NCBI GenBank assembly: GCA_964525675.1
Contig: CAZGJW010000002.1
Coordinates: 7,093-71,092 of the forward strand
DNA: 64,000 nucleotides
Direction of reading: 5' to 3'
Source of the DNA: an uncultured Spirochaetota bacterium
Lineage (GTDB): Bacteria > Spirochaetota > B62-G9 > DRHN01
Positions within the stretch are counted from its first letter, which is position 1. Each line of letters opens with the position of its first letter. The translations under genes were made by a program, and so were the position numbers. The notes under the pieces were generated by a model. That model had not been told where the DNA came from. It was given only the letters and a program-made list of their open reading frames with translations, and did no database searches. Positions 3,199-60,300 of the stretch are shown here, piece by piece.

Positions 3199-3357
3199 TT
3201 ATGGTTTTATCCATTAGAATTCTGGCATTTTGTACCAGAATTTCGAATACAAATGACTATATTATACTACATTGCCGTAATATTACATACTTTAGGTAAA
3301 AACCATTAGGTAAGTGATAATTTTCAACTTCTAAGATTGGCAAGTTTACTTACCTAT
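3199..3357 (-). mobile_element. R1 repeat copy A (159 nt, MITE-like, subfamily 1)
   Basis: The reverse complement reads ATAGGTAAGTAAACTT...CACTTACCTAATGGTTTTTACC...TTCTGGTACAAAATGCCAGAA...GGATAAAACCATAA. It is alignable end to end with copies at 18753, 35561, 52001 and 60141. Confidence 0.85.
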
Positions 3358-3407: not shown

Positions 3408-4421
3408 ATGGCATCGTTAAAAACATCGTATATGGGAATGGAGTTGAAAAACCCGGTTATTGCGGGTGCTAGCAGTATGACCATGAATCTTGGCAGTATC
3501 AAAAAAATAGAGGAGGCGGGGGCAGGAGCCCTTGTGATCGCTTCTCTTTTCGAGGAGCAGATACAGCTCGAACAGATGAAGCTTGAGGAGGAGCTCGAGA
3601 AGATCAAGTACAGAAATCCGGAGATGATTGAAATATTTCCCGACCTCGAGCACGCAGGGCCGCAGGAGCATCTATTGTGGGTCAGAAAGGCGAAGGAGAG
3701 CGTCGCAATTCCGGTCATTGCGAGTCTCAATGCGGTAAACCGTGAAACATGGGTCGAGTACGCCGCGCTGCTCGAGCAGACGGGTGTGGACGGTCTCGAG
3801 CTCAATTTCTTCGCAACACAGAGTGAGTTCGACAGGGCAGGGGTGGAGATAGAGGATGAACAGGTTGCCATCCTGAAAGAGATAAAGAAAAAGGTCAAAG
3901 TTCCAATTAGCGTGAAACTGAGTATTTACTATTCGAACCCCCTCCACATTATTAAAAAGCTCGACGAGGCAGGTGTAAACGGTTTCGTTCTCTTTAACAG
4001 GTTTTTTCAGCCCGATATCAATATCGATGAAGAAAAAAACATCTCCCCATTTAATTTCAGCCATGAAACGGACTACCGCCTGCCGCTCCGCTACACAGGG
4101 ATCCTGTTCGGAAATATCGAGGCCAGCATCTGCAGCAGCAGGGGGATACTGCACGGCAGGGAAGTAATAAAGATGATTCTTGCAGGCGCGGACTGCATAC
4201 AGTGCGTAAGCACGCTGTTTATAAACAAGGTCGATTATATAAAGAGCATGCTTTCGGATATCGAGAAATGGATGGACAAGAAGGGATATGTCGACCTTGC
4301 GAGTTTCAGAGGCAAAATGAGCAGGAAGAACAGCAGCGACCCGTGGACCTACACACGCGCCCAATACGTGAAGCTGCTCGTAAAGCCGGAGCAGTTCCTC
4401 AGGGATGTGAAAACTGAATAG
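3408..4421 (+). CDS. dihydroorotate dehydrogenase-like (PyrD/PreA-fold TIM-barrel flavoprotein) protein
   Basis: The 337-aa ORF has a GGGGAG SD upstream. The N-terminus MELKNPVIAGAS and the later GADCIQ... are typical of class-1 DHOD-like proteins. Confidence 0.7.
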   Translation: MASLKTSYMGMELKNPVIAGASSMTMNLGSIKKIEEAGAGALVIASLFEEQIQLEQMKLEEELEKIKYRNPEMIEIFPDLEHAGPQEHLLWVRKAKESVAIPVIASLNAVNRETWVEYAALLEQTGVDGLELNFFATQSEFDRAGVEIEDEQVAILKEIKKKVKVPISVKLSIYYSNPLHIIKKLDEAGVNGFVLFNRFFQPDINIDEEKNISPFNFSHETDYRLPLRYTGILFGNIEASICSSRGILHGREVIKMILAGADCIQCVSTLFINKVDYIKSMLSDIEKWMDKKGYVDLASFRGKMSRKNSSDPWTYTRAQYVKLLVKPEQFLRDVKTE

Positions 4422-6137: not shown

Positions 6138-6899
6138 ATGAAACTGGCGAATAAAGTGGCCGTCATTACAGGTGCAGGTTCAGGTATCGGACAAACAACC
6201 GCGTTATTATTTGCAAAAGAGGGAGCAAAGGTGGTGGTTGCTGACCTTAATGTAAATGGAGGGACTAAAACTGTAGACTTGATAAAGAAGGCTGAAGGCA
6301 ACGCCGCTCTTATATTGACTGATGTTTCCGATGTATCCAGTGTGAAGAAGATGGTAAAGAGCACTGTTGACATGCACGGAGGTCTCGATATACTTATAAA
6401 TGTCGCAGGTGTATTTGCTGAGGGAGATGTGGTAAGCACATCGGAGGATGACTGGGACCGCGTGCTTGGCGTAAATCTCTCAGGCATATATCTGTGCATG
6501 AAATACTGTATACCGGTAATGATGAAAAACGGTGGGGGAGTTATTGTTAACGTTGCCTCTGAAGCGGGTCTTGTGGCAATAGCCAATCAGGTCGCATATA
6601 ATGTATCAAAAAGCGGTGTCATTGCTCTGACAAGAAGTGCGGCGATTGATTTTGTTGATAAAAATATTCGGGTAAATTGCATCTGTCCGGGAAGGGTTTT
6701 GACCCCGCTTGTGAAAAAGGTTATTAATGAATCAAAAAACCCGGATAGTACAAGGCGCCTCCTTTCTGAAGACCGTCCGTTAAAGAGAATGGGAAAACCG
6801 GAAGAGATTGCAGCAGGAATACTGTTTTTAGCATCCGATGAGGTGAAGTATGCAGTCGGGACGGTTCTTACAATAGATGGAGGTTATACGGTTCGCTAA
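6138..6899 (+). CDS. SDR family oxidoreductase
   Basis: It carries TGAGSGIG, NVAG and the YNVSKSG (YxxxK) motif. Confidence 0.85.
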   Translation: MKLANKVAVITGAGSGIGQTTALLFAKEGAKVVVADLNVNGGTKTVDLIKKAEGNAALILTDVSDVSSVKKMVKSTVDMHGGLDILINVAGVFAEGDVVSTSEDDWDRVLGVNLSGIYLCMKYCIPVMMKNGGGVIVNVASEAGLVAIANQVAYNVSKSGVIALTRSAAIDFVDKNIRVNCICPGRVLTPLVKKVINESKNPDSTRRLLSEDRPLKRMGKPEEIAAGILFLASDEVKYAVGTVLTIDGGYTVR

Positions 6900-6925: not shown

Positions 6926-8431
6926 ATGGGAGATACGTCATTCCTGTTAAGGGCAGTAGAGATTTATAAGAGATTCCCGGGTGTTGTTGCTCTCGACAGG
7001 GTCGATTTCGATCTGAAGCGAGGTGAGGTGCATGTCTTGCTCGGTGAGAATGGTGCCGGGAAATCAACCCTCATGAAGATTTTCAGCGGCACCCTGCTAA
7101 AAGATGGCGGTCGATTGTACATTCAGGATCAGGAAGTTGAAATTGAAAGCCCGTATCACGCGCGGGATCTGGGAATCGGCATGGTGTATCAGGAACTAAG
7201 CCTTATTTCCAGCCTCAGTGTTGCTGAAAACATGTATCTGGGTAGACTTCCGAAAAGGGTAACAGGTACAGTCAACTGGCCGAAGCTCTACAACGAAGCT
7301 CGTAATCTTTTTAAAGATTTTAATGTTGATATCAATCCGAGACAGAAGGTCGGTACTCTTGGAATGGCAGAACGACAGCTTGTTGAAATTGCCAAGACGC
7401 TCTCGATGAACATACAAATACTGCTGCTCGATGAACCGACCTCGGCATTATCGGAGGATGAACGAGAAAGGTTATTCGATATTATACGGCAGCTTCAGCA
7501 AAAGGGTGTTGGTATCGTTTATGTGTCTCATCGTCTCGACGAGGTGCCGAAGATTGGTGACAGGATTACGGTGCTCAGAGATGGAAAAAAAATAGGTACG
7601 CTTCCAGTGATCGATACTGATGAAAACACTCTTATCACGATGATGGTTGGGCGGAAGCTAAAAGAAAAATTTCCAAAAGAAAAGGTAGAAATTGGCCGCG
7701 AGATTTTAGGAATTCATAACTTAACAGTTAAGGGCAAGATCAAAAATATCACCCTCAATCTCAACGAAGGTGAAATCTTGGGTATTTCCGGCCTGATGGG
7801 TGCAGGGCGAACTGAGTTTGCACGGGCGCTATTTGGTATTGATCGTATCGACAGCGGGCAGATTTTCATTGATGGAAAACCGGTAAACATTTCATCTCCA
7901 TGGGATGCAATAGCGCTGGGACTCGGCTACCTTACGGAGGACAGAAAAGACGGGCTGGTTCTCCGGTTACCAGTTTCTGCCAATATCACTCTTGCAAGTT
8001 TGAAGCATGTGCGTAATTTCGCATTCCTCCGCCATCGTACTGAAAGGAGTTTAGCAGATAAATATATAAATGAGCTCAGCATACATACGTCCGACCTCAA
8101 TCAGCAGGCTGAATTTCTCAGCGGTGGTAACCAGCAAAAAGTTGCTCTCGCAAAATGGATGTGCAGTCACTCCAGGATTATGATTTTCGATGAACCGACG
8201 CGGGGCATTGATGTCGGTTCAAAGACAGAAGTCTTTAAATTAATGAACAATCTTGTTAAAAGAAAAGTAGGGATTATTATGATCTCATCGGAGCTCCCTG
8301 AAATAATGGCTATTGCAGATAGAATTATTGTCATGTGCCGCGGTTCTATTTCTGCTGAATTTGAAAGTGGTCAGGCCACACAGGAAGATATACTGCGTTA
8401 TGCCGTAATCGGAGGGGATCGAGATGAGTGA
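6926..8431 (+). CDS. sugar ABC transporter ATP-binding protein (duplicated ABC domains, RbsA/MglA type)
   Basis: It has GENGAGKST, LLLDEPT and a second-half LSGGNQQKV / IFDEPTRGID. Length is 501 aa. Confidence 0.9.
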   Translation: MGDTSFLLRAVEIYKRFPGVVALDRVDFDLKRGEVHVLLGENGAGKSTLMKIFSGTLLKDGGRLYIQDQEVEIESPYHARDLGIGMVYQELSLISSLSVAENMYLGRLPKRVTGTVNWPKLYNEARNLFKDFNVDINPRQKVGTLGMAERQLVEIAKTLSMNIQILLLDEPTSALSEDERERLFDIIRQLQQKGVGIVYVSHRLDEVPKIGDRITVLRDGKKIGTLPVIDTDENTLITMMVGRKLKEKFPKEKVEIGREILGIHNLTVKGKIKNITLNLNEGEILGISGLMGAGRTEFARALFGIDRIDSGQIFIDGKPVNISSPWDAIALGLGYLTEDRKDGLVLRLPVSANITLASLKHVRNFAFLRHRTERSLADKYINELSIHTSDLNQQAEFLSGGNQQKVALAKWMCSHSRIMIFDEPTRGIDVGSKTEVFKLMNNLVKRKVGIIMISSELPEIMAIADRIIVMCRGSISAEFESGQATQEDILRYAVIGGDRDE

Positions 8432-9509
8432 ATCACCGTTGAAAAATGCCGGGAATGAGAATGAGAGAACTCCGTTACTCATGTGGATCGAAAAAGGCCT
8501 CGGGTTACGAAGAATCGGATGGGCAACATTACTGCGCGGTGGCCCGATAATCGCACTTCTGCTTCTTGTCCTGTATTTTTCGCTGGCTTCTCCTCATTTC
8601 TTCACAGTAGATAATTTAAAGAACATAGGTGAACAGAACGCCTATCTCATTATTCTTGCCGTGGGTCAAACGATGGTAATTATCGGCGCAGGAATTGACT
8701 TATCCGTTGGCGCGTTGATGGCGGTGTCCGCTTCAATTATGGCCGTGTTTGCTACACAGGAAGTAACCCTCTTTGGTATATTGGTTGGACCAATTCATGC
8801 AGCGCCGGCGATGCTGTTGGGATTTTTAGTCGGTGCCTTCGCAGGCTTTATCAACGGATTGGTTATTTCCAAAGGAAGGATCCCTGATTTTGTTGCCACT
8901 CTTGGTATGATGGAAGCTGCTCGCGGCGCAGCCCTCCTGGTAACCGGAGGACTGCCCATTCCCTCTCATCTGACAGCAACCGAGTTAAAGGGATATCTGC
9001 CTGATGCGATCATCTGGATGGGAGGGAAAGAAATTTTTGGGATTCCTACAGGGCCGTTGATTGCTGTTTTAGTGGTTATCATAGGTTGGTTGATTTTAAC
9101 CCAGACCGTACTGGGACGATCGATATTAGCAGTGGGAGGGAACAGGGAGGCCGCAAGGGTATCGGGCCTCAAGGTTGATCGCATCAAAATCGCTACATAT
9201 ACTATCATGGGTATGATGGCTGCAGTAGCTGGCATTGTATTAGCGGGGCGTATGAACTCAGCCAATGCTTTGATGGCTACCGGTGTAGAATTGAAGTGTA
9301 TTGCAGCAGTGGTAATAGGCGGTTCGAACCTTTTTGGCGGGGAAGGTACCATTATTGGGAGTTTGATCGGTGCAATCATCATGGGAGTTCTGGGTAACGG
9401 CCTCAACCTGCTCAGTGTCTCAGCTTTCTGGCAGCGGGTTGTGATGGGACTCGTTATCATTGGAGTTGTGATTTTCGACCAGTGGCGCCGTCGGCGGTTC
9501 GGCGCATAA
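8424..9509 (+). CDS. sugar ABC transporter permease (RbsC/AraH family)
   Basis: It is a polytopic hydrophobic 361-aa ORF. The 8-nt overlap with the ATPase gene suggests translational coupling. Confidence 0.85.
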   Translation: MSESPLKNAGNENERTPLLMWIEKGLGLRRIGWATLLRGGPIIALLLLVLYFSLASPHFFTVDNLKNIGEQNAYLIILAVGQTMVIIGAGIDLSVGALMAVSASIMAVFATQEVTLFGILVGPIHAAPAMLLGFLVGAFAGFINGLVISKGRIPDFVATLGMMEAARGAALLVTGGLPIPSHLTATELKGYLPDAIIWMGGKEIFGIPTGPLIAVLVVIIGWLILTQTVLGRSILAVGGNREAARVSGLKVDRIKIATYTIMGMMAAVAGIVLAGRMNSANALMATGVELKCIAAVVIGGSNLFGGEGTIIGSLIGAIIMGVLGNGLNLLSVSAFWQRVVMGLVIIGVVIFDQWRRRRFGA

Positions 9510-9583
9510 ACTGCGTGTTGTTTCTCAATTAATCCTGATAGAGTATTCCCTTCACTGTTTGTTATAAAAACTTATTGTAAATA

Positions 9584-9918
9584 CAATTAGCGTGAAACTG
9601 AGTATTTACTATTCGAACCCTCTTCACTTTATTAAAAAGCTCGACGGTACCGGCGTAAACGGTTTCGTGCTCTTCAACCGGTTTTTTCAGCCGGATATCG
9701 ATATCGATGAAGAAAAAAATATCTTCCCATTTAATTTCAGCCATGAAACAGACTACCGCCTGCCGTTCCGCTACGCAGGGCCCCTGTTCGGAAATATCAG
9801 GGGCAGCATCTGCAGCAGCAGGGGTATGCTGCACGGCAGGGACGCAATTAAAATGATACTCGCAGGCGCGGATTGCATACTGCAATTCTTCACGTTGCAC
9901 AAAAAATTTTGCGTTTAA
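9584..9918 (+). pseudogene. internal fragment of a DHOD-like gene (paralog remnant)
   Basis: Positions 9584-9880 align without gaps to 3904-4200 of the intact gene, with 265/297 identical by my count. There is no N-terminal half, and the tail diverges and then stops. Confidence 0.85.
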
Positions 9919-10151
9919 GAACATTCCTCCGTGCAGACAATAATTTTACAACGTCGAATTACCGTCAAACCAGCTCAATATTCTTGACATGAGTTCATTT
10001 TTCCTGTACAGTGGCAGGAAACCGGATGGGTTCTGACAGCCGGTTTTCTGTTTGAGCGGGACCATTCACCTTTACAATATGGGTATCCAGTACTTCCTGT
10101 TAAAAGTGTATTAAACATCCAATATCAGTAGGTTTTGCTGTGCTGAGAAGA

Positions 10152-17529: not shown

Positions 17530-18267
17530 ATGAAAATGGTTCAACTAAATAGATTTTCTTCTGTTCCTCTATATACTCAACTCTCCCAGCAGATAAAAGA
17601 TAAAATATTAAGTGAAACTATCAAACCGGGGAACCCTTTACCGACCGAAAGTGAAATGGCGAAGATAGCGGGAGTAAGTTCTGCGGTTGTGCGGCAGGCG
17701 TACAGTTATCTAAGAAGGGCAGGATTTGCTATCACACATCGGGGAAAAGGAACTTTTGTCGCTGAAAGGAAAATAACATTTGAAATTGTACAAAAACTCG
17801 ATTCCTATGAAGAAGCTGTAAAAAGGGGGGTAAGGGTGGAAACAGAGGTGCTGGACTTTAAAGAAATCACCGATGTTCCGCACGATGTAAGAAAGAACCT
17901 TAAAATAACCGAAAACGAGGCAGTTATTTCATTAACTCGTCTTCGATCTTTCGATAAAATAAAGATGTTTTACTGGACATCTTATCTGCCTTCTTCATTA
18001 TGCCGGTCGTTGCTTGATGAAAATTTTTCTCAGGTGCCACTTTTTGAAACCTTAAAAAAAAAATTGAATATAAATGTTGCAAGATCTGAAAGATGGGCTG
18101 AAGTTACAAGGGCTGATTCGTTTAAATCTGAACTTTTTGGAATTTCGGAATTAGAACCGCTGTTGTATGTTGAAAGTATCACCTATACTGATATGGGCAT
18201 TACTATTGATTATCACAAGGGTTGGTATCGCGCCGATTGTGGAAGACTGTACTTTGAAGTAAGGTAG
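17530..18267 (+). CDS. GntR-family (HutC subfamily, UTRA domain) transcriptional regulator
   Basis: It has the N-terminal wHTH LPTESEMAKIAGVSSAVVRQAYSYLRRAGF...GKGTFV and a C-terminal UTRA-like half. Confidence 0.8.
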   Translation: MKMVQLNRFSSVPLYTQLSQQIKDKILSETIKPGNPLPTESEMAKIAGVSSAVVRQAYSYLRRAGFAITHRGKGTFVAERKITFEIVQKLDSYEEAVKRGVRVETEVLDFKEITDVPHDVRKNLKITENEAVISLTRLRSFDKIKMFYWTSYLPSSLCRSLLDENFSQVPLFETLKKKLNINVARSERWAEVTRADSFKSELFGISELEPLLYVESITYTDMGITIDYHKGWYRADCGRLYFEVR

Positions 18268-18361: not shown

Positions 18362-19261
18362 ATGAAGCTAGATGGCAAGGTGGCATTGGTTACGGGCGCT
18401 GCTCAGGGTATTGGGGAAGCTACGGCGCGTGTATTTGGTGCAGAAGGTGCATATGTGATTGCGGTTGATATTAATGGTGATAAAGTAAGCCAAAACGTTG
18501 AGTACATGAAACAAAAAGGGTATCTGGCTGAAATGATGCAAATCGATGTTTCAGATATAGATGATATTCACCGGTCTATTAGTAAAATAGTGGAAAGTCA
18601 TCGACGCATCGACATTCTCATCAACATTGCAGGGATATTTTCAAAAACCCCTATACTTAAAATTACTGAAGATGAATGGGATATGGTATTTAGTGTTAAC
18701 CTTAAAGGCACTTTTTTTCTTTCAAAAGAGGTTCTGGTAACAATGATTAAAAATAGGCAAGTTAACTTTCAAACTTAAAAGGTGCAAACCAACACCTGCC
18801 TAATGGTTTTTACCTCTAGAATGTAATTACAAGTAATTGTAACAGTATAGATAGTCAGCTTTGCATGAAATTCTGGTACAAAAAACCGTAATTTTAATGG
18901 ATAAAACCATAAGTATGGAAAAATTGTAAATGTATCCTCGCTTTCTGCAAAGAGGGGGGGAGTAACTTCCGGTATACATTACGGTGCCTCAAAGGCGGGG
19001 GTAATCTCAGTTACAAAATATTTAGCCAAGTTTAGTGCTCCTTATAACATCAATGTGAATGCGGTTGTTCCTGGCTTTGTTGACACACCAATGTTCAGGA
19101 GAAATGTTGATGCGATAGAGAACGTAATTAAATCGATCCCGATTGGTCGTGTTGCAAGGCCTGAAGAGGTCGCGAAAGTGATTATGTTCCTCGCATCTGA
19201 CGATGCCAGTTACATTACTGGTGAAATATTGGATGTAAATGGTGGAATTCTGATGGATTAA
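18362..19261 (+). pseudogene. FabG-like SDR oxidoreductase interrupted by R1 copy B
   Basis: The N-terminal half (TGAAQGIG...NIAG...MIKN) stops at a TAA inside the insert. The same frame resumes as (K)YGKIVNVSSLSAKRGG...YGASKAG...PGFVDTPM after the insert. Confidence 0.9.
18753..18912 (+). mobile_element. R1 repeat copy B (160 nt, subfamily 2) inserted in the SDR gene
   Basis: It runs ATAGGCAAGTTAAC...GGATAAAACCATAA. Removing 156 bp (the core plus one ATA) restores ATG ATT AAA AAT AAG TAT GGA AAA = MIKNKYGK. Confidence 0.9.
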
Positions 19262-19483: not shown

Positions 19484-20335
19484 TTGAAAGTGAAGCCCTG
19501 GTTGTTGTTTCTACCCTCACTTGCATTGGTGATGTTCAATGCTTTTATCCCTACAGTTACTGTTATTTCCTATTCTTTGCACTACTATTTTCCATCAGTC
19601 CCGCCAGAGTATCTGGGTCTTGAACAATATCGGAGACTTTTAAGCGATCCGAATTTTCTCACTGCATTGTACAGGGGATTGCTTTTCTCTTTTGAATGTC
19701 TTGCTATCGAGGTGCCCCTTGGTCTCGCTATAGCAATGGTTCTTCCAAAAAAAGGAGTATTCGGAGGGGCTGCTCTTGCTGTTATCGCGATTCCACTGGT
19801 TATTCCCTGGATGACTGTCGGCCTCATGTGGAAATTGATGACTCAGCAGGTTGTTGGACCGATTCCATTTTTTCTTTCGAAATTGGGTATTGAGTTTGAT
19901 ATGTCCAGGCCGGTGCATGCTTTTCAAACCATTGTACTCATGGATGTCTGGCACTGGACTCCTCTCATTATTCTACTTATGTCCGCTGGATTGTCAGCAT
20001 TACCGGAAGAATATTACGAGGCGGCGAAAATTGATGGGGCTCGGGCCGGAAGAATTTTCAGGTATGTGACTTTGCCAGGGCTTAAATCTCCGCTTCTTGT
20101 TTTGCTTCTCCTGAGATTTATTGACACATTCAAGATATACGATGAAGTATGGGTGCTCACATCCGGTGGCCCGGGTAATGCTACCACTTTTCTCAGTATT
20201 TTTACCGTGAGGTTGGGAATTGGAGCTTTCAATTTAGGCTATGGTTCAGCAGTATCATTAACATTTCTATATGTAGTGTTGACCTTCAGTTTTGTTTTGA
20301 TGGTAGTTATGACCAAGGGGAGGGGGGTAAAATAG
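19484..20335 (+). CDS. carbohydrate ABC transporter permease (MalF/UgpA type)
   Basis: It has the EAA loop EYYEAAKIDGARAGRIFRYVTLPG and ~6 TM segments. The start is TTG/GTG and uncertain by a few codons. Confidence 0.85.
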   Translation: MKVKPWLLFLPSLALVMFNAFIPTVTVISYSLHYYFPSVPPEYLGLEQYRRLLSDPNFLTALYRGLLFSFECLAIEVPLGLAIAMVLPKKGVFGGAALAVIAIPLVIPWMTVGLMWKLMTQQVVGPIPFFLSKLGIEFDMSRPVHAFQTIVLMDVWHWTPLIILLMSAGLSALPEEYYEAAKIDGARAGRIFRYVTLPGLKSPLLVLLLLRFIDTFKIYDEVWVLTSGGPGNATTFLSIFTVRLGIGAFNLGYGSAVSLTFLYVVLTFSFVLMVVMTKGRGVK

Positions 20336-20337
20336 AC

Positions 20338-21147
20338 ATGAAAGAGCGGAACAAGCGGATTATCTTTACGATCATTATCTGTCTTTATCTTATCTTTACT
20401 CTCTTTCCTTTCTACTGGATGCTTAACACAGCTTTCAAGCACAAGGCTGAAGTTACGAGGGAACTTACCTTTTATCCACACCACTTTACGTTGGATTCTT
20501 TTAAACAGGTAATTAATAAACCCCTCTATAGAAGGGCACTCCTGAATTCGCTGTCAATTGCCTTTGGATCAGTTATACTCTGCTTGTCTGTTGGAATCTG
20601 GGCAGCATATGCATTCTCCCGTTATAGATTCCTGGGGGATAAGCATTTCTTCTTCTGGTTGATTACGAATCGTATGGCTCCTCCTGCGGTATTCGTTATT
20701 CCGTATTTTATGATATATTCCACGATCGGACTTTATGATACGCGTATAGGAGTAATATTGTCTCATACCCTGTTTAATTTACCGCTTACCATTTGGTTGC
20801 TTGTAGGGTTTATGAATGCCGTACCGACTGACCTTGATGAGGCTGCATTTGTTGATGGCTACACCTTCGTTGGTTATTTTAGAAAGATTTTTTTTCCAGT
20901 GATTGCACCGGGTATCGGTGTTACGGCTTTTTTTCTTTTTATATTCTCCTGGTCAGAAATGTTGCTTGGTTCAGTGCTTACTGCTTCATCAGCTAAGCCT
21001 GTAACAGTCGCTTTACTGCAAAATGTATCCATGTTTGGTGTCGAATGGGGACTGATCGCCGCTGTTTCCATATTTGCGGTATTACCTGGAATAGTGGCAG
21101 TTGCTTTTGTAAGAAAATATATCGCGAGAGGTTTCCTTGTTGGGTAA
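20338..21147 (+). CDS. carbohydrate ABC transporter permease (MalG/UgpE type)
   Basis: It has the EAA loop DLDEAAFVDGYTFVGYFRKIFFP. Confidence 0.85.
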   Translation: MKERNKRIIFTIIICLYLIFTLFPFYWMLNTAFKHKAEVTRELTFYPHHFTLDSFKQVINKPLYRRALLNSLSIAFGSVILCLSVGIWAAYAFSRYRFLGDKHFFFWLITNRMAPPAVFVIPYFMIYSTIGLYDTRIGVILSHTLFNLPLTIWLLVGFMNAVPTDLDEAAFVDGYTFVGYFRKIFFPVIAPGIGVTAFFLFIFSWSEMLLGSVLTASSAKPVTVALLQNVSMFGVEWGLIAAVSIFAVLPGIVAVAFVRKYIARGFLVG

Positions 21148-21158
21148 GGAGGTTAAGT

Positions 21159-21437
21159 TTGTTGCAAAATGTTTCTACAATTGTAAAAGGTGCTTTGTCT
21201 GCCGGTATAGGGGTAACGGCAATGTTGAGTGTTCTTGCAATTTTTGTCGGTGAGACCGAGCTAAGACGGGGATTTTTACCCTGGCCAACAACATGGGGAG
21301 ATCGGTTCTTTATTTCCCTGCTCATATTATTCCTCATTGGGTTACTATGGTTGAAGTTCATTGAACCCCTGCTTCCAATTTACGGTGCCTTGATTCTGAG
21401 TTTAATAATTGGATTTTTCATCGTAAAGTATGGTTAG
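21159..21437 (+). CDS. small hydrophobic protein (~92 aa, about 3 TM) within the ABC operon
   Basis: AAGGAGG at 21146-21152 precedes TTG 21159. The hydrophobic segments are AGIGVTAMLSVLAIFVG, FFISLLILFLIGLLWL and LILSLIIGFFIV. No family was recognised. Confidence 0.4.
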   Translation: MLQNVSTIVKGALSAGIGVTAMLSVLAIFVGETELRRGFLPWPTTWGDRFFISLLILFLIGLLWLKFIEPLLPIYGALILSLIIGFFIVKYG

Positions 21438-21584
21438 AAGTATGGCTAAATGATGAGCACATGGTTTTTTGCCTGTGAGGGTGGGGTAAGGAAAATATTC
21501 TCGCATATATACTCAATGAAGGGAGGTGAAAATACGAAGTAGCATATTCACATTTAGAGTAAAAAACGTCAGGAGGAAAAACAT

Positions 21585-23144
21585 ATGAAAGTGACAAATC
21601 GATTTTTCTACTTTTTACTCATCGTCATGTTTGTTTGTACTGCGGTGGGTGTATCCTTCGCCGGAGGAGGAGAAGGAAAGGGTAAAGCGGAAGATGTTGC
21701 GAAATATTATGCGGCTGCAGACAAATACGGAAAAACAGAGCAAGCTAAAAAGTTATACCGATGGTATGCGGATGCAGCGGCTCCCTACAGGGGTAAGACT
21801 GTCAAGACTATTCTAGAGGCTCTGCCTCCTACGCAATATCTTGCGAACACGATTGCTCCAATGTTTATAGAGATCACCGGTATAAAGCTCATTGCTGAAT
21901 TGGCTTCCAATGAGGAGGTTTACTCCAAGGAGATGCTTGAAGCTACAAGCCGTAGCGGGACCTACGATTTTTTCTACGATGATCAGGACATGATCGGTAC
22001 CTGGAATAAAAGGAAAAGTATTGCCAATTTAACACAGCTCATGAAGGATCATCCTGAAATTATCGAACCCGAGCTGGATCTGGATGATTTTATTGATGCG
22101 GTTATAAACATGTATACAGATACCGAAGGGAACCTCTGGAACCTGCCTATGGAACAATACCCGAAAGTATACATCTATCGGTCAGACCTTTTTGAAGATC
22201 CGCAGGAAAAGGCAGCATTTAAGAAGAAATACGGTTGGGATCTCAGGCCGGCAAGAACCTACGATGAATACACCGAAATTGCAGAATTCTTTACCAGGCC
22301 GGAGGAGAATCTGTATGGACATGCCTGTGCCGGGAGAAGACACCCTGCGCTTGCTTATGAATGGACTGAAGCGCTCTTTCTTCAAGCTGGGGTATGCAGT
22401 CCTGGCATCCCTTGGGGGCGGCCGATATGCGGCTGGGGCATAAAGATCAATGAAAATAATAAGATGGCTGGATGCTCCGTTTCAACAGGGGGGACGATCA
22501 ACGATCCTAAAATGGTAGAATTCTTCACTATGTACAAGAACCTGATCGATAATTTTGCACCTCCCGGTATTCTCGAGTTCATCTGGGAAGAGGAGGCAGA
22601 AAGTTTCAAGGCGGGTACAGTTGCACAAATTCCAAATTTTTATTCGCAGTTAACTCCAACCCTGGCTGCATCTGATTCGGCGGTTGTTGGTAAATTTAAA
22701 GTCACTATGCCGCCAACAACCGGGTACTGGAAAGAAGGGATGGCCCGGGGTTACTGGGATTCAGCAGGTTTTATTATTCCTGCAGCGTCGAAAAATGTAG
22801 AGCCTTCATTCTTGTTTGCCCAATTTGTCGTTTCAAAGGCTCATGAGCTTGAAAGGGCAAAGAATGTTGGCTGCACGGTGAGAAAGTCGGTTCTCGCATC
22901 ACCCGATCTTGCTGAAACAGATAGGAAACTAGGTGGTCTGATCAGTTTACAAAAAAGCCCGGAAGCACTTACTTACACCGGAACTGATCCTGCTATCGAG
23001 GAATATGCCGCCATGCTTGAGATAATATACTCTGATATTCATAGAGGGTTGACAGGTGAATGGTCTCCAAAAGAAACCTTGGACACCCTGGCAAACGAAC
23101 TGGACACCGAGTTGGGCAGGATGGGTTATCCAATTGGAAAGTGA
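21585..23144 (+). CDS. ABC transporter extracellular solute-binding protein (family 1, large 519-aa form)
   Basis: It has an AGGAGGAAAA SD and a signal-like N-terminus. It sits in an operon with two permeases and two ATPases. Confidence 0.75.
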   Translation: MKVTNRFFYFLLIVMFVCTAVGVSFAGGGEGKGKAEDVAKYYAAADKYGKTEQAKKLYRWYADAAAPYRGKTVKTILEALPPTQYLANTIAPMFIEITGIKLIAELASNEEVYSKEMLEATSRSGTYDFFYDDQDMIGTWNKRKSIANLTQLMKDHPEIIEPELDLDDFIDAVINMYTDTEGNLWNLPMEQYPKVYIYRSDLFEDPQEKAAFKKKYGWDLRPARTYDEYTEIAEFFTRPEENLYGHACAGRRHPALAYEWTEALFLQAGVCSPGIPWGRPICGWGIKINENNKMAGCSVSTGGTINDPKMVEFFTMYKNLIDNFAPPGILEFIWEEEAESFKAGTVAQIPNFYSQLTPTLAASDSAVVGKFKVTMPPTTGYWKEGMARGYWDSAGFIIPAASKNVEPSFLFAQFVVSKAHELERAKNVGCTVRKSVLASPDLAETDRKLGGLISLQKSPEALTYTGTDPAIEEYAAMLEIIYSDIHRGLTGEWSPKETLDTLANELDTELGRMGYPIGK

Positions 23145-23169
23145 GCGTGTTAACTGATTATGATGAAAC

Positions 23170-23200
23170 CGGTGAGCCATATATGGCTCACCGGGTTCTT
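23170..23200 (+). terminator. GC-rich hairpin after the SBP gene (attenuator/terminator)
   Basis: CCGGTGAGCCAta/taTGGCTCACCGG forms an ~11-bp stem 26 nt after the stop. The following T-tract is weak (GTTCTTAT). Confidence 0.5.
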
Positions 23201-23259
23201 ATAGGTAAAATAGTTTGAATAACATGAAGGACGATATAGTTTATAAAAAGGTAAGGTAA

Positions 23260-24375
23260 ATGGCATCAGTACGATTGGAAAACATTTCTAAGTCCTTTAT
23301 CGGCAAAAAAAATGTGCTGAAAGATATTTCCCTGGAGGTGACTGACCGTAGTGTGACGTCCCTCCTGGCTCCAACAGGATTTGGAAAAACGACCATTTTA
23401 AGGATAATTGCGGGTGTTGAGAAACCTGATACAGGAAGAGTCTACTTCGGAGATAAGGATGTCACAGAGATGCCAACTCAGAAGAGAAATGTAGCGATGG
23501 TATTTCAAAGTTTTGCACTCTATCCGAATATGACTGTGTATGCAAACATTGCCTCTCCCTTGAAAATTATGGGGCTTGATCAAACTGATATCGATGAAAG
23601 AGTAACAAACCAGGTGGAGTCTTTGAAGATCCAAGATCTTCTAAGTAAAACTCCACATGAATTGAGCGGTGGAGAGAGACAAAGAGTAGCAATTGCACGT
23701 GCTCTGGTCAAGGGGGCTGATGTTTATCTAATGGATGAGCCACTCACAAATCTTGACTACAAGATCCGTGAGAGCATGCGAATGGAGCTGAAAGAGATCT
23801 TTCGTGAGATAAAGGGAAGCATCATATTTGCGACGCCGGATCCAAGGGAGGTTTTATCAATGTCTACTCATGTAGCATTTCTGCAAAATGGTACAATTGG
23901 ACAGTACGGTACTACGCTCGATGTGTATAATCAGCCGAAAAACGTTGAGGTGGGTACTTACTATGGATATCCTCCCATGAACATTTTTGATGGTCAATTT
24001 GTCGAGAAAGACGGTAAATGTTTTTTGCGTGTTTTTGAAGAGATCGATTTGGATATAACTCACATGAAAGACCTTTTCAAAACTGAGAAAATATTCGATG
24101 TAGGTTTGCGGCCAAATGAAATTCGTATGAAGGATAGGTTTCAGAATGGGATGATTTCATTTTTACCAACTGTCCTGCTGAGCGAGGTTATTGGTTCTGA
24201 GACTATTGTTTATATGAAATATAAGGATGTAGAGATGAAAATGTTGGTTTCAAGATTGATTAAGTACGAGGGAAAGAAGATTGAGGTATGTTTTGATCCT
24301 TCAAATCTCTATATATTCGGGAAACAGACGAACAGACTGATCGGCAAATATATAACAAACGTGGAGAGAAAGTAG
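23260..24375 (+). CDS. ABC transporter ATP-binding protein (MalK/UgpC type) with atypical Walker A and H-loop
   Basis: Walker A is APTGFGKTT (Ala instead of the first Gly). The signature LSGGERQRV and Walker B YLMDEPL are canonical. The H-loop position reads ATPDP, with no His. Confidence 0.8.
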   Translation: MASVRLENISKSFIGKKNVLKDISLEVTDRSVTSLLAPTGFGKTTILRIIAGVEKPDTGRVYFGDKDVTEMPTQKRNVAMVFQSFALYPNMTVYANIASPLKIMGLDQTDIDERVTNQVESLKIQDLLSKTPHELSGGERQRVAIARALVKGADVYLMDEPLTNLDYKIRESMRMELKEIFREIKGSIIFATPDPREVLSMSTHVAFLQNGTIGQYGTTLDVYNQPKNVEVGTYYGYPPMNIFDGQFVEKDGKCFLRVFEEIDLDITHMKDLFKTEKIFDVGLRPNEIRMKDRFQNGMISFLPTVLLSEVIGSETIVYMKYKDVEMKMLVSRLIKYEGKKIEVCFDPSNLYIFGKQTNRLIGKYITNVERK

Positions 24376-24377
24376 CC

Positions 24378-25439
24378 ATGGCCGAGATTCATCTTGAAAA
24401 TATTTCACACAACTATGGTGGTAAGGTTTTGGCAGTCAAGAATGTTTCCATCACATTTCCCGATGGGTCGAACAATGCCTTGCTTGGGCCATCTGGATGT
24501 GGAAAAACAACTCTTATGAAGATTATAGCGGGCTTGTTAAAACCAACTGAGGGCAGAGTTTATTTTGATGGAAAAGATGTGACGGATCTTTCTGCGCAGG
24601 ACAGAAACATTGCCATGGTTTTTCAGTTTCCTGTGATCTATGACATGACAGTATTCGACAACCTGATGTTCCCCCTCCTGAGTCGAAAAATTCCTAAGAA
24701 ACAGGCTCGAGAACAGGTAATGGAAATAGCAGATGTTCTCAACTTAACCTCCTTGTTCAAAACGCGATCAAAGGATCTGGATATGGGAGCCAGACAGAGA
24801 GTGACTCTGGGAAGAGCTCTGGTGAGAAAACCGAGTGCTTTCCTCATGGATGAGCCGCTTTCAAGTATTGAGCCCGAAGGGAAATGGCATCTCAAGATGA
24901 AAATACGAGAGATTCAGGAAACACTTGAGCAAACTTTAATATATGTAACTCATGATCAATCCGAAGCACTTACCCTGGCAGATCAGATCGTTGTCATGAA
25001 CGAGGGAGAATTTTTACAATACGCATCAACGGATACAATCTATGAAGAACCGAGTAACACCTTTGTGGGGTATTTTATCGGTGATCCTGGGATGAATTTC
25101 ATAAACTGTACTCTAAAGGGTAATAGCCTGGATTGTGAAAACTTCAATTTTGATGTATCTAAATTTTCGCTTGAAAAATATGGAGAGAATTTTAAATTAG
25201 GCATCAGGCCTGAACACCTTCAGGTAAGCAGTCATGAGCAGAAAAATTGGATTCCCTCCAAATTAAAAACCGTAGAAAACCTCGGGAATATGCAAATACT
25301 ACATATATTTTCTGGTAAGCACGATATTAAAGCAAAAATGGAATCTTTTGAATTATCAGGTGATGGAAACGTGTGGATTCATTTACCGAATGATAAAGTT
25401 AGGATTTTTAAAGAGACCGGTGAGCTTGTAATTGTTTAG
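24378..25439 (+). CDS. ABC transporter ATP-binding protein (MalK/UgpC type) with a degenerate signature motif
   Basis: Walker A GPSGCGKTT, Walker B FLMDEPL and H-loop VTHDQ are canonical. The signature position reads LDMGARQRV instead of LSGGQ. Confidence 0.8.
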   Translation: MAEIHLENISHNYGGKVLAVKNVSITFPDGSNNALLGPSGCGKTTLMKIIAGLLKPTEGRVYFDGKDVTDLSAQDRNIAMVFQFPVIYDMTVFDNLMFPLLSRKIPKKQAREQVMEIADVLNLTSLFKTRSKDLDMGARQRVTLGRALVRKPSAFLMDEPLSSIEPEGKWHLKMKIREIQETLEQTLIYVTHDQSEALTLADQIVVMNEGEFLQYASTDTIYEEPSNTFVGYFIGDPGMNFINCTLKGNSLDCENFNFDVSKFSLEKYGENFKLGIRPEHLQVSSHEQKNWIPSKLKTVENLGNMQILHIFSGKHDIKAKMESFELSGDGNVWIHLPNDKVRIFKETGELVIV

Positions 25440-25564
25440 TATTGCATACATAACATTCCGTCAGGTGATTACCTGTATTCAATACACATTGATCCTTTTA
25501 TGTCGTTATTCTCTAATATCTGAGAGACCTCGAAAAAACTTACTCGTATATTAAACATTGTTCT

Positions 25565-27130
25565 TTAACTTAACAAAATATTGGTTTCATGCCTGAGCAT
25601 GTCATGCATGAGATCGCGAAGTCTAAAGTAGGTCTCTATGTACTTGTCCGTATAGTAACGGTAGGACTCATATCGCTCTCTATCGGGTTCGATTTTCAAT
25701 CGAATTCTCACCATACTCTTTACAGCTTCCTCTAAACTTTTAAACACTCCGGCACCATATGATGCCAATATTGCATCGCCAAGCAGAGGTGCATTTGGGT
25801 CCTCGGTAAGAAAAATTGGTAGACCAAGTACATCGCTATGGATTTGCATCCACAATTCACTGTTTGTCGGGCCGCCGCAAACATAAATCCCTTCGGGTTC
25901 GAAGCCAGCTTCCCGGAAAAAACGAACGATGTATTCAGTACCATAAGCAACACCTTCCATTATAGCCCGATAAAGATGAGCAGGTGTATGTTTCAACGAA
26001 AATCCCCAAACAGCACCACGGGCCTGTGAATCGGTGACGGGATTTCTATTGCCCTGCCAGTAATTAAGGAGTATCAGTCCATCCGAACCTATTTTCACTT
26101 TCTTTGCAAGTTGACTCATATATTCGTAGAGCTCAAGCCCCTTTTTCTTTGCATTTCTTTGATATTCCCGGCCTATGAAGTTGTCCTTGAACCATTTGAG
26201 TACAGAACCGGTTGAGATCTGAGAACCTTCAACAGCACACAATCCCTGTATAACCGCATCGGGAAATGCCCCGAATATTCCCTCCTTATGAATCTCCTCC
26301 TCAGATAAACCGAGCATAACATGTGATGATCCTGTTATAAGTGCAACTCTTCCCTGCCTAACAACCCCCAACCCTATCATTCCAGTAAAGGCGTCAGCAC
26401 CTCCCTGAATTACAATTGTACTGGTAGAAAGGCCTGTTTTCTTTGCCACGTTTGGGAGTATTGTACCGATCGGTTCACCAAGTTGCAGAATGTTTTCAGG
26501 AAACCGTTTTATTAAATCATCGAGGCCAATGGAATTATAAAATTTATAGGGCCAACCTCCACAGCGTGTATTATAGTACCAGCGTATGGTGACGTTGTTT
26601 ATACTTCCTACGTAATTTCCGGTAATACGATAGTTGATGTAATCCTGCAACTCACAGATGTAACGTGCATGGTCGTAAATCTCACGCTGGTTCTCCTTCA
26701 GCCATAACGCCTTGGACGGCATCCATTCGGCGGATACTCTTCCGAAACCGTTATACTTCAAAGAATCTGAGCCGCATTTTGCAATTCGCTCAGCCTGTTT
26801 GAAAGCCCGCACATCCATCCATAAAAGTGCATTTCGTAACGGTTGAAAATGTTTATCCAGAGCCAGTACGGTGCAGGAAGTGCTGTCCATACATAGGCTT
26901 GGTATCTGTTCTGGCTTTACACCTGATTCGTCAAGCAATGCTCTGATCACTTGAATAAATGCATCCCACCATTCATCTGGGTTCTGCTCAGCCCAACCGG
27001 AATAGGGAAATGTAGTTTTATATATACGTGTTTTTGAATGAATCATTTTGCCATGTTTATTAAAAAATGCAGCACGGAGGGATTCTGTGCCGAAATCAAG
27101 TGCGAGAAAATAAATGTTATCGTCATTCAT
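25565..27130 (-). CDS. FGGY-family carbohydrate kinase
   Basis: YFLALDFGTESLRAA is at the N-terminus, with GGADAF and GGPTNSELWMQ. Length is 521 aa. Confidence 0.85.
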   Translation of the reverse strand: MNDDNIYFLALDFGTESLRAAFFNKHGKMIHSKTRIYKTTFPYSGWAEQNPDEWWDAFIQVIRALLDESGVKPEQIPSLCMDSTSCTVLALDKHFQPLRNALLWMDVRAFKQAERIAKCGSDSLKYNGFGRVSAEWMPSKALWLKENQREIYDHARYICELQDYINYRITGNYVGSINNVTIRWYYNTRCGGWPYKFYNSIGLDDLIKRFPENILQLGEPIGTILPNVAKKTGLSTSTIVIQGGADAFTGMIGLGVVRQGRVALITGSSHVMLGLSEEEIHKEGIFGAFPDAVIQGLCAVEGSQISTGSVLKWFKDNFIGREYQRNAKKKGLELYEYMSQLAKKVKIGSDGLILLNYWQGNRNPVTDSQARGAVWGFSLKHTPAHLYRAIMEGVAYGTEYIVRFFREAGFEPEGIYVCGGPTNSELWMQIHSDVLGLPIFLTEDPNAPLLGDAILASYGAGVFKSLEEAVKSMVRIRLKIEPDRERYESYRYYTDKYIETYFRLRDLMHDMLRHETNILLS

Positions 27131-28926: not shown

Positions 28927-29916
28927 TTAGAACTGCAGCCTGGCGCCCCCTTCAAGCATGTAGTTGCTGTTCTTGAAGTTGTATCCTCCCTGCAGGGTAA
29001 CGGCGAGCATCAGGATTTTCACCTCCAAACCGCCGAACAGTGTTGTATCGAATCCTTCAGGCTTTGCTTCCGTGCTGATCACGAGCTGCTTATTTGTAAA
29101 GTCTTCAACATAGGGGTCATACATGGAATCGGTGAGCTCGAGAGTCGTGCTTCCGGAAAGATCGGTTGTGGCCTTGCCGAATGTCTTGCTGAACCGTGCG
29201 CCCCCGAACAGGTTGATAAAGAGTATTTGAAAATTTATCTGGCCCTCTCCGCCAACGGTAAAGCCTTTCCAGTTCGTTTCAAACCCGGTTTCTGTAATGA
29301 GATTTGCAACCTGCGTCGAACCGAGTTCGGGAACATCCACGAAAACCGGTATCGAATCCCGTCCCAGCATGGTTACGTTTCCGTTGATATATTCGAAGAA
29401 ACCGCCGAAAGATGCGCCGGTCCTCAAAAGCATCAGCACCCTTTTATCCCAGAGCTCGTAGCGCAGCTTTCCGCCGATAATCATGTTGTTGAGCTGAACA
29501 CCGGCGTCCTTGTCCTCGATCTTGGGAAATCCGGCAAGTTTGCCGCCTACTTCGAAGCGCTTGATCTTGAATTTTGCATGTACTCCAATGGCGGGAACGG
29601 GGATGTATGAAAGTCCCTCGAAATCGTACTGAAGGCTCGTGCCGAGGGCGATATTTTCGGTCGGTACGAATGAGGCTCCGCCTGCAATACCTACTTCGAT
29701 ATGTTTGATCGTCGAATAGCCGACCGGATCGCCTAAAAATGTCATTGCGCCAAGGTTCGGCCCGAAGATGCTGCTGAGACCCTGCGATATTGCGGTCAGA
29801 TCCGACTCAACAGCGCCAAGGTCATATGGCTGTGGCTTTTGGGCGAATACGAATGTCCCGGGTAAAACAAGAACTGTTACGCATATAACTGTTATCAGTA
29901 TTTTTTTCCTGTTCAT
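28927..29916 (-). CDS. predicted outer-membrane beta-barrel protein (no named family recognised)
   Basis: It has the signal peptide MNRKKILITVICVTVLVLPGTFVFAQ, alternating beta-strand patterns and a C-terminal ...GGARLQF. ATG 29916 follows GGAAGGAGAAG. Confidence 0.6.
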   Translation of the reverse strand: MNRKKILITVICVTVLVLPGTFVFAQKPQPYDLGAVESDLTAISQGLSSIFGPNLGAMTFLGDPVGYSTIKHIEVGIAGGASFVPTENIALGTSLQYDFEGLSYIPVPAIGVHAKFKIKRFEVGGKLAGFPKIEDKDAGVQLNNMIIGGKLRYELWDKRVLMLLRTGASFGGFFEYINGNVTMLGRDSIPVFVDVPELGSTQVANLITETGFETNWKGFTVGGEGQINFQILFINLFGGARFSKTFGKATTDLSGSTTLELTDSMYDPYVEDFTNKQLVISTEAKPEGFDTTLFGGLEVKILMLAVTLQGGYNFKNSNYMLEGGARLQF

Positions 29917-30090
29917 AACTTCTCCTTCCACGAGTATCTTTATGAATTTGCAAAATATTTGTTTTGCAACCTGCTGTTTTTTGTATATAGTGAAATTTTA
30001 ATACACTCTGGTTCGAATTTCCACTCTACTTTATGAATATAACGCACAGTACCAATTTTATCAGGAAAATCATCGCAGATTATAAGCTGG

Positions 30091-35560: not shown

Positions 35561-35741
35561 ATAGGTAAGTAAACTTGTCAATTTTAGAAGTTGAAAATTA
35601 TCACTTACCTAATGGTTTTTACCAATAGTATGTAATATTATGGCAATGTAGTATAATTTAGTCATTTGTATTCGAAATTCTGGTACAAAAGGAAAAGATA
35701 TCACTTCGCTAGACCAGAATTCTAAATAGATAAAACCATAA
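35561..35741 (+). mobile_element. R1 repeat copy C (181 nt, subfamily 1, enlarged 3' hairpin loop)
   Basis: It runs ATAGGTAAGTAAACTT...GATAAAACCATAA. The TTCTGGT...ACCAGAA hairpin has a 28-nt loop. It lies between the inverted 18-mers at 35505-35522 and 35786-35803. Confidence 0.85.
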
Positions 35742-37297: not shown

Positions 37298-37326
37298 ATG
37301 CACCAAGCGGAAGAACATGTTATAAC

Positions 37327-37367
37327 ATAGGCAAGCGAGCTTGCAAACATAAAGGGTTTAAACCAAA
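37327..37367 (+). repeat. R1 truncated copy F (5' hairpin module only)
   Basis: ATAGGCAAGCGAGCTTGCAAACATAAAGGGTTTAAACCAA aligns to the first ~40 nt of copies B and D. It lacks the CACTTGCCTAATGG arm and everything 3' of it. Confidence 0.6.
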
Positions 37368-52000: not shown

Positions 52001-52158
52001 ATAGGCAAGTGAACTTCCAAACGTAAAAGGTTCAAATCGACACTTGCCTAATGGTTTTTACCTATAGAATGCAATGATAGGTAATTGTAACATAATAAGT
52101 CAGTTGAGCATAAAAATTCTGGTACAAAAAACCAGAATTTTAATGGATAAAACCATAA
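52001..52158 (+). mobile_element. R1 repeat copy D (158 nt, subfamily 2)
   Basis: It runs ATAGGCAAGTGAACTTCC...CACTTGCCTAATGGTTTTTACC...TTCTGGTACAAAAAACCAGAA...GGATAAAACCATAA. It ends 12 nt before ATG 52171. Confidence 0.85.
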
Positions 52159-60140: not shown

Positions 60141-60300
60141 TTATGATTTTATCCATTAAAATTACGGTTTTTTGTACCAGAATTTCATGCAAAGCTGACT
60201 ATCTATACTGTTACAATTACTTGTAATTACATTCTAGAGGTAAAAACCATTAGGCAAGTGCCGGTTTTAATTGTTAAAGTTTGGAAGTTCACTTGCCTAT
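60141..60300 (-). mobile_element. R1 repeat copy E (160 nt, subfamily 2)
   Basis: The reverse complement differs from copy B at only 2 of the last 120 nt but at 10 of 30 positions in the 5' hairpin loop. Confidence 0.85.

Follow-up and report, generated by a model that had tools for sequence, protein, structure and literature searches.

A short repeat in a dehydrogenase gene and its family of non-coding elements in uncultured Spirochaetota

The 64,000-nucleotide stretch of Spirochaetota DNA analysed here (the window) carries, at 18362-19261, the two parts of what reads as one FabG-like SDR gene, with a copy of a repeat that we call R1 lying between them. The locus raises the question of whether this repeat came in as a mobile element and broke the gene, and, if so, what kind of element it is and by which route it could move.

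A dehydrogenase gene in two parts

The 5' part of the gene (18362-18755, plus strand), recognised from its open reading frame and translation, from Pfam and from alignment, holds the Rossmann fold with the TGxxxGxG NAD(P)-binding motif (TGAAQGIG, residues 11-18) and ends in the target AAAAATA. In a check of the sequence, the frame opened at 18362 runs to ...LVTMIKN, with AAT at 18752-18754, and the next letters are AGGCAAG. The left ATA (18753-18755, plus strand), the target trinucleotide that stands single in the empty site, is followed by R1 copy B (18756-18911, plus strand), an insertion of 156 bp in which the right-hand ATA (18909-18911) is counted. The SDR frame is back at 18911 (KYGKIVNVSSLSAKRGG...YGASKAG, stop codon at 19259-19261), and the 3' part (18912-19261, plus strand), in phase and severed from the native start, encodes the catalytic Ser141, Tyr155 and Lys159.

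When 18756-18911 is deleted in silico, a 247-aa SDR protein results, and its alignment with eight homologues (46-91% identity) is free of gaps at the junction. S141, Y155 and K159 are invariant across this alignment and all are encoded 3' of the junction, while PF00106, PF13561 and PF08659 (adh_short/KR) match the 138-aa fragment as well as the homologues. The insert holds five in-frame stops, the first a TAA at 18776-18778; standing between the start and these three residues, they keep the catalytic Ser-Tyr-Lys from being translated with the N-terminal domain. With its NAD(P)-binding half thus parted from its Ser-Tyr-Lys half, the SDR gene is a pseudogene. For annotation, 18362-19261 is one pseudogene split by a repeat and not two small genes; the gene callers' current products at the locus are proteins of 138 aa and 68 aa.

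The gene lies directly downstream of a GntR/UTRA transcription regulator (17530-18267, plus strand; Pfam GntR and UTRA on the identical JGI gene). Its closest full-length homologue, P0001, is an intact SDR of 91% protein identity encoded on three JGI contigs (L003, L004 and L005) from a sister population. The gene order of these contigs matches that of the window: Zn-ADH, aldo-keto reductase, GntR, SDR, two permeases, DUF2160, a 519-aa protein, two ABC ATPases and an FGGY kinase. To the left and right of the insert, the DNA of the window aligns with theirs at 83-91% nucleotide identity. The empty site reads ATGATAAAAAATAAATATGG; the window reads ATGATTAAAAATA, then the insert GGCAAG...AACCATA, then AGTATGG. 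The gap between filled and empty site is exactly 156 bp, with a placement ambiguity of 3 nt (ATA), and ATA-element-ATA in the window corresponds to a single ATA in the syntenic sister locus, which is about 87-91% identical in nucleotides.

A sequence-only reading of this DNA had proposed a precise, in-phase insertion of 156 bp into an SDR gene with collinear halves, the first gene after the GntR regulator in an ABC-transporter locus, and a truncation before the catalytic Ser-Tyr-Lys; it had named orthologous SDR genes or empty sites as the check. The 156-bp gap, the gap-free alignment, the locus annotation and the position of the three residues 3' of the insert bear out these claims in turn, and the intact orthologue with its single ATA supplies the comparison that it had recommended.

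Other observations concern the surroundings of the gene. From 19484 to 27130, downstream of the split SDR, the window encodes two permeases, DUF2160, the 519-aa protein, two ATPases and the FGGY kinase, a locus that we take to resemble rhizobial glycerol/polyol ABC uptake operons. In the sister population the GntR regulator is of full length (245 aa) on L005 130-867 and is called truncated on L003 2446-3006 and L004 2556-3167 (186 aa and 203 aa); these differences may be strain-level frameshifts or sequencing errors.

Repeats often break assemblies, and one of the contigs carrying this locus (L007) ends within the element, so that a repeat misplaced within an intact gene had to be considered. 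The insertion is present at 99.7-100% identity in independent assemblies, namely JGI 3300032062 (L001 and L006), Logan SRR9700688 (L007) and an NCBI contig of 105 kb. Identical junctions in several independent assemblies and samples argue against an assembly artefact, as does the fact that an intact SDR allele at about 100% identity was found nowhere among 5.8 billion clustered proteins, and we put the probability of such an artefact close to nil.

Neither half of the SDR gene carries further lesions. From P0001 the upstream half differs at 14 of 134 aa and the downstream half at 9 of 113 aa, as counted by eye in the alignment. The untranslated half has suffered no extra decay; the insertion is young relative to the population split and recent relative to the protein divergence of about 9% from the intact orthologue. 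The disrupted dehydrogenase is probably dispensable; an SDR paralogue, 38% identical, lies in the window at 6138-6899. The knock-out of a gene by a repeat is an ordinary event; of more interest here is the family to which the element belongs.

Spread, mobility and target of the R1 family

Searches with blastn and nhmmer find five full R1 copies and one fragment in the window, the nhmmer E-values of the five ranging from 1e-48 to 1e-32, far beyond chance. Besides copy B, which these searches place at 18753-18911 (plus strand), they are an intergenic copy at 3200-3357 (minus strand) between a histidine kinase gene and a DHO_dh-like gene, one at 35561-35740 (plus strand) flanked by a cold-shock gene and a tRNA synthetase gene, and intergenic copies at 52001-52157 (plus strand) and 60142-60300 (minus strand), the last with 92% identity to copy B. 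The copy at 35561-35740 bears an extra hairpin of about 22 nt in the loop of P3, a predicted hairpin described below, and its orthologous site is empty in L053. The fragment, a decayed 5' piece of about 40 nt (37324-37366, plus strand) that has lost the 3' strand of the terminal hairpin P1, lies between rpsU and murD.

Some features of the window stand apart from R1. A direct repeat of 297 bp with 89% identity occurs at 3904-4200, within the DHO_dh-like ORF 3408-4421, and at 9584-9880, where it overlaps an unannotated 120-aa ORF (9562-9924, minus strand); it is probably a duplicated gene fragment. Large ORFs without a Pfam match at E<=1e-5 are found at 55105-57681 (858 aa), 61500-62882 (minus strand, 460 aa) and 28927-29931 (minus strand, 334 aa). 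The search for an extension past the window end yielded just a 4-kb contig.

Beyond the window, a two-block pattern run on GTDB genomes finds 26 R1 loci, confined to two uncultured Spirochaetota MAGs, and a 22-mer from the left part finds at least 113 loci on JGI metagenome contigs. In the collected loci, nhmmer counts 124 full copies, which occupy 90 distinct insertion sites. The members of R1 are short mobile DNA elements, non-coding and found in one lineage of uncultured Spirochaetota; they typically measure 153-160 bp, and variants span a range of about 60 to about 350 bp. For 41 of the 90 copies the nearest neighbour is at least 98% identical; part of these neighbours may be orthologous copies in sister strains. 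Neither PLSDB plasmids nor INPHARED phages have a blastn match to the consensus, and IMG/VR viral contigs gave none in pattern scans. The literature on the conserved R1 13-mer and on spirochaete MITEs offered nothing relevant, and the family is apparently undescribed.

Mobility, which the sequence-only reading had deduced from copy B, is upheld by seven more pairs of filled and empty orthologous sites. The gaps of the eight pairs measure 153-178 bp, and the empty sites have a single ATA each, one divergent pair excepted. One pair is reciprocal: R1 lies between two ATPase genes at L003 9087-9247 and is absent from the window at 24352-24354 (plus strand), a vacant target (CAAATATATA followed by ACAAAC) that is occupied in the sister population of L003, L004 and L005. 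Alignments of orthologous DNA between populations about 90-94% identical also end repeatedly at R1 boundaries. R1 is active enough for populations that are about 90-97% identical to differ in it, and so it marks strain-level turnover in these sediment-type Spirochaetota.

The copy at L003 9087-9247 has peculiarities of its own. It lies where the upstream ABC ATPase gene ends and replaces that gene's last codons, the product ending in ...SKYIR instead of ...GKYITNVERK, and its left junction is ATTAGG, with an extra T compared with the usual ATAGG. A boundary model prompted by this copy, in which the element would be TAGG...CCAT between A and A, was discarded because it breaks the SDR frame at copy B.

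Among the 90 sites only copy B is truly intragenic. This rarity implies strong selection against intragenic copies, a target bias towards AT-rich spacers, or both. R1 is small, non-coding, multi-copy and strain-polymorphic, as a classical MITE is by definition, and we regard it as very probable that a mobile non-autonomous element knocked out the SDR gene.

The target logo, rebuilt from the 90 sites, is one-sided, an A-tract and then ATA. A occupies positions -8 to -4 in 54, 78, 73, 57 and 51 of the 90 sites, ATA stands at -3 to -1, and to its right follow A/T, A/T and T (54/90), the composition being near background after about +2. Present in empty sites as well, the A-tract is part of the target and not of the element. 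Copy B used AAAAATA, followed by A, within the SDR gene. The target resembles the 3' end of R1 itself, TAAAACCATA (AAAACCATA), and in line with this likeness two head-to-tail dimers have one ATA in common (L096 9085-9243 with 9241-9400, and L074 7598-7754 with 7752-7909). ATA is found at both ends at 83 of the 90 sites; the remaining seven are all discordant between left and right. Occurring once in empty and twice in filled sites, ATA fits a 3-bp duplication or an element-borne ATA equally.

On the right side, the 7-nt flank AGTATGG is common to two unrelated insertions, at window 18912-18918 and in L013. It is palindromic with the element end (CCATA-AG-TATGG), and L028 has CCATACGTAT; such flanks may hint at a weak ATA..TAT preference.

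Predicted fold and possible routes of movement

R1 has no terminal inverted repeats: its ends, GGCAAGTGAACTT and GGTTTTATCCATT, have only 4 of 13 positions in common (GG..TT). The inverted repeats that it does contain pair each terminus with an internal site. In copy B, folding predicts a terminal hairpin P1 (18754-18802, plus strand; TAGGCAAGTT / CACCTGCCTA), whose foot takes in the TA of the left ATA, and a P2 domain (18803-18910, plus strand) closed by a helix of ATGGTTTT (18803-18810) with AAAACCAT (18903-18910). Inside P2, beside a variable central hairpin, lies the P3 hairpin (18868-18876 / 18886-18894, plus strand). In the consensus, P1 (TAGGCAAGTG / CACTTGCCTA) starts at the T of the left ATA, P2 (ATGGTTTT / AAAACCAT) comes directly after it and ends one base short of the 3' terminus, and P3 is AAATTCTGG / CCAGAATTT. 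The stems of P1 and P2 are dissimilar (TAGGCAAGT vs ATGGTTTT). Because P1 has its foot at the 5' end, P2 has its foot at the 3' end and the two helices adjoin, the joined ends of R1 have their complement in an internal 17-mer, ACTTGCCTAATGGTTTT.

All R1 subfamilies take this same predicted architecture, with RNA and DNA energy parameters alike. Across 60 distinct copies, 94.3% of cells are paired, compared with 36-54% when the partners are slid. A double change from C-G to U-A in P1 is seen in 20 of the 60 sequences; such changes affect just 2 of 27 pairs and are probably single events, so that covariation support is thin and the fold is conserved mostly through the youth of the sequence. Wobble pairs have no strand preference. 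Mini-variants of about 60-110 nt retain P1, ATGGTTTTTACC and AAAACCATA. A description of R1 as two independent palindromic units was abandoned: no solo unit 2 occurs, and the solo unit 1 at 37324 is the decayed fragment.

The loops hold optional modules, namely a 15-nt tandem unit, hairpins of about 22 nt and GC-rich inserts of about 75-100 nt. The 15-nt unit, TGGTACCTGTGCCCT, is repeated one to four times within the P3 hairpin (L024 at about 680-760; also L014, L030, L033 and L017). One subfamily carries a GC-rich module of about 75 nt (GATCGGGCTCG...GGTCGGAAGAAC) in the P1 loop (L015 2130-2400, L022 6807-7059 and L025 3745-4074; also L124, L133 with two copies, L143 and L149), and related modules occupy the P3 loop in L026, L029 and L003 10360-10600; this module may be a second, nested small repeat. 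Chimeric copies, with the P1 of one subfamily and the centre or 3' part of another, occur at L074:7598-7754 and L074:7752-7909 and in copy B compared with L096:9241-9400, which suggests recombination or gene conversion among R1 copies.

A fold that unites both flanks at one junction could also serve to remove the insert from RNA or to skip it in translation, by a small intron, by processing and ligation or by ribosomal bypass, and the SDR would then still work. The insert length, a multiple of 3, and the sense orientation of copy B would suit such a reading. The family as a whole speaks against it, with one intragenic site in 90 and an orientation that is random relative to neighbouring genes. 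The Rfam 15 covariance models, any of transposon-associated RNAs and self-splicing introns among them, give no match at the gathering threshold in the window, just noise at E up to 10 on 18700-18960. The ends break the rules of group I introns, the insert not ending in G, and those of group II (no GUGYG...AY). For bypass, the sequence has no matching take-off and landing codons to restore the KYG frame; the known ribosomal hop covers 50 nt, and a gap of 156 nt is three times that. Removal or skipping of this kind is highly improbable, and the reading of copy B as a mobile element that inactivated the gene is retained.

As to the route of movement, an element that lacks inverted repeats, has a one-sided target and ends in hairpins points to an asymmetric enzyme. 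IS200/IS605 elements lack inverted repeats, insert 3' of a short fixed sequence and have hairpin ends and precise junctions (PMC5027513), and a single-strand route like theirs is, tentatively, the best fit for R1. An enzyme supplied in trans would recognise the folded ends and cut one strand after ATA; R1 would travel as a single-stranded circle and would be inserted 3' of the A-tract and ATA without duplication, as in the 'peel and paste' of IS200/IS605. The left ATA would then belong to the target and the right ATA to the element. The junctions fit equally well the two routes between which the sequence-only reading had not chosen, insertion 3' of ATA and a 3-bp ATA duplication, and conservative recombination at an ATA core accounts for them no less well; the evidence cuts both ways. 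Hairpin placement speaks against the single-strand route. In IS200/IS605 the hairpins resemble each other and lie subterminally, at some distance from the cleavage sites, and the guide sequences are 5' of the hairpin foot (PMC5027513); those of R1 abut its ends.

Also against the single-strand route, for which a bias towards the lagging-strand template is expected, orientation shows no bias relative to local GC skew (46:38, p=0.45), a proxy that is imperfect on MAG fragments, and is equally flat at |skew|>0.08 (15:13). The window itself has positive skew throughout and holds three plus-strand and two minus-strand copies. Relative to neighbouring ORFs, too, no bias of orientation is found. Together with the wobble pairs, these counts led us to discard a strand-specific function.

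The search for an enzyme covered 1.39 Mb of collected DNA. A six-frame motif scan found no Y1 IS200-type transposase, a further point against the single-strand route, and a motif scan no tyrosine recombinase; Pfam on the ORFs of the window gave no transposase, and no parent IS with R1 ends lies within the 1.39 Mb. Matches of nhmmer to the left end only, considered as an autonomous parent, proved to be long-insert, mini or truncated copies. All-vs-all clustering of ORFs for a parent returned only ABC transporters and similar families, and an all-vs-all DNA comparison for multi-copy IS-like segments of 400-6000 bp returned just orthologous blocks broken by R1.

A double-stranded circle integrated by conservative site-specific recombination, through a tyrosine or serine recombinase or an IS110-type DEDD enzyme, is a weaker possibility. 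The crossover would fall in an ATA core common to the joined ends (AAAACCATA followed by GG) and to a target that mimics them (AAAANATA). Such a route would accommodate the ATA at both junctions and its single occurrence in each empty site, the likeness of the target's left arm to the element's right arm, the ATA shared in tandem dimers, the absence of inverted repeats and an orientation unbiased with respect to GC skew and neighbouring genes. It has a precedent in the ssr9 small-RNA module, which forms minicircles via the transposase of the IS110-family ISPpu9 (PMC12288879). Against it, the target's right arm is unlike the element's left end (GGCAAGT), IS110 targets are normally long and specific (REP sequences, for example) where the R1 motif is short and degenerate, a motif scan of the 1.39 Mb gave no tyrosine recombinase, and no IS110-like gene was seen.

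The same ATA, single in empty and double in filled sites, would be a true duplication if R1 were an ordinary MITE, mobilised by a DDE transposase whose cuts at ATA are staggered by 3 bp. R1 is small, abundant, polymorphic and biased towards intergenic sites, as MITEs typically are, and the lack of orientation bias agrees with this. The ends speak otherwise, agreeing at 4 of 13 positions (GGCAAGTGAACTT / GGTTTTATCCATT) with no terminal inverted repeats, and the strongly asymmetric target departs from the near-palindromic preference expected of a two-fold symmetric transpososome. At each of the seven sites where an end is not ATA, left and right disagree, and no matching IS was found in the 1.39 Mb. 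We hold a DDE route to be unlikely.

What probability lies beyond the single-strand, recombination and DDE routes is the remainder left to other ones. An undescribed class of self-templating element, with the internal 17-mer ACTTGCCTAATGGTTTT as a built-in guide and a non-classical enzyme, is a long shot. The 17-mer would hold both ends and pick targets that mimic the right end (A-tract and ATA), and the enzyme, of the host or encoded by a single-copy gene, would differ both from classical DDE transposases and from the canonical TnpA of IS200/IS605. It might, for example, be a nucleic-acid-guided recombinase, R1 then being essentially 'guide plus ends'.

R1 beside known mobile repeats

Classical bacterial MITEs such as the Correia/NEMIS elements of Neisseria are non-coding, of about 150 bp, present in many copies and mostly intergenic. 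R1 resembles Correia/NEMIS in size, intergenic bias, presence/absence polymorphism and the occasional gene knock-out, and differs from classical MITEs in its asymmetric target and its lack of terminal inverted repeats.

Pneumococcal BOX elements and REPIN/RAYT systems are modular structured repeats, the REPs measuring 20-40 nt with a GTAG/CGTC head. R1 is likewise modular, with variable internal modules, tandem sub-units (the 15-nt TGGTACCTGTGCCCT, one to four times) and a strong predicted fold; it has no sequence relationship to them, and it has defined ends and documented precise insertions. As with BOX and REPIN, no transposase is adjacent to R1, whose mobilising enzyme may thus be encoded elsewhere by a gene present once.

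Rickettsia palindromic elements are structured, of about 100-150 bp, and can lie in phase within protein genes, where they are translated in the host protein. R1 departs from them, with five in-frame stops in copy B and 89 of the 90 sites outside genes.

Closer in several ways are the non-autonomous derivatives of IS200/IS605 (palindrome-associated elements and MITEs), which like R1 have end hairpins and no inverted repeats and are inserted, with clean junctions, directly 3' of a conserved short motif that is present on one side only (PMC5027513). The hairpins of R1 nevertheless start at the termini and abut the cleavage points, and its left and right stems are unrelated, whereas in IS608 the hairpins are subterminal and alike. 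The R1 target is longer and looser (A-tract and ATA) than those of IS200/IS605, its orientation is free of GC-skew bias and no Y1 transposase accompanies it in the 1.39 Mb. The ssr9 module of ISPpu9 is, like R1, a small non-coding module without inverted repeats, and in spreading on its own via a transposase supplied in trans it can be set beside R1 (PMC12288879). It differs in travelling with an identified IS110 transposase and in inserting in REP sequences (PMC12288879), neither of which is seen for R1.

R1 is noteworthy in being small, in lacking inverted repeats and in having a target that copies the 3' end of the element, and with 90 insertion sites, eight filled/empty pairs, tandem dimers and mini-variants it forms a clean natural data set. 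The identity of its mobilising enzyme would tell whether HUH single-strand transposition can proceed in the absence of a replication-strand bias or an enzyme of a different kind is at work. In its behaviour R1 recalls MITEs and palindrome-associated elements, yet it departs from MITEs in lacking inverted repeats and from IS200/IS605 in hairpin placement and strand bias. Because it fails a defining test of each of these families, it is best filed under the small non-autonomous mobile repeats of bacteria.
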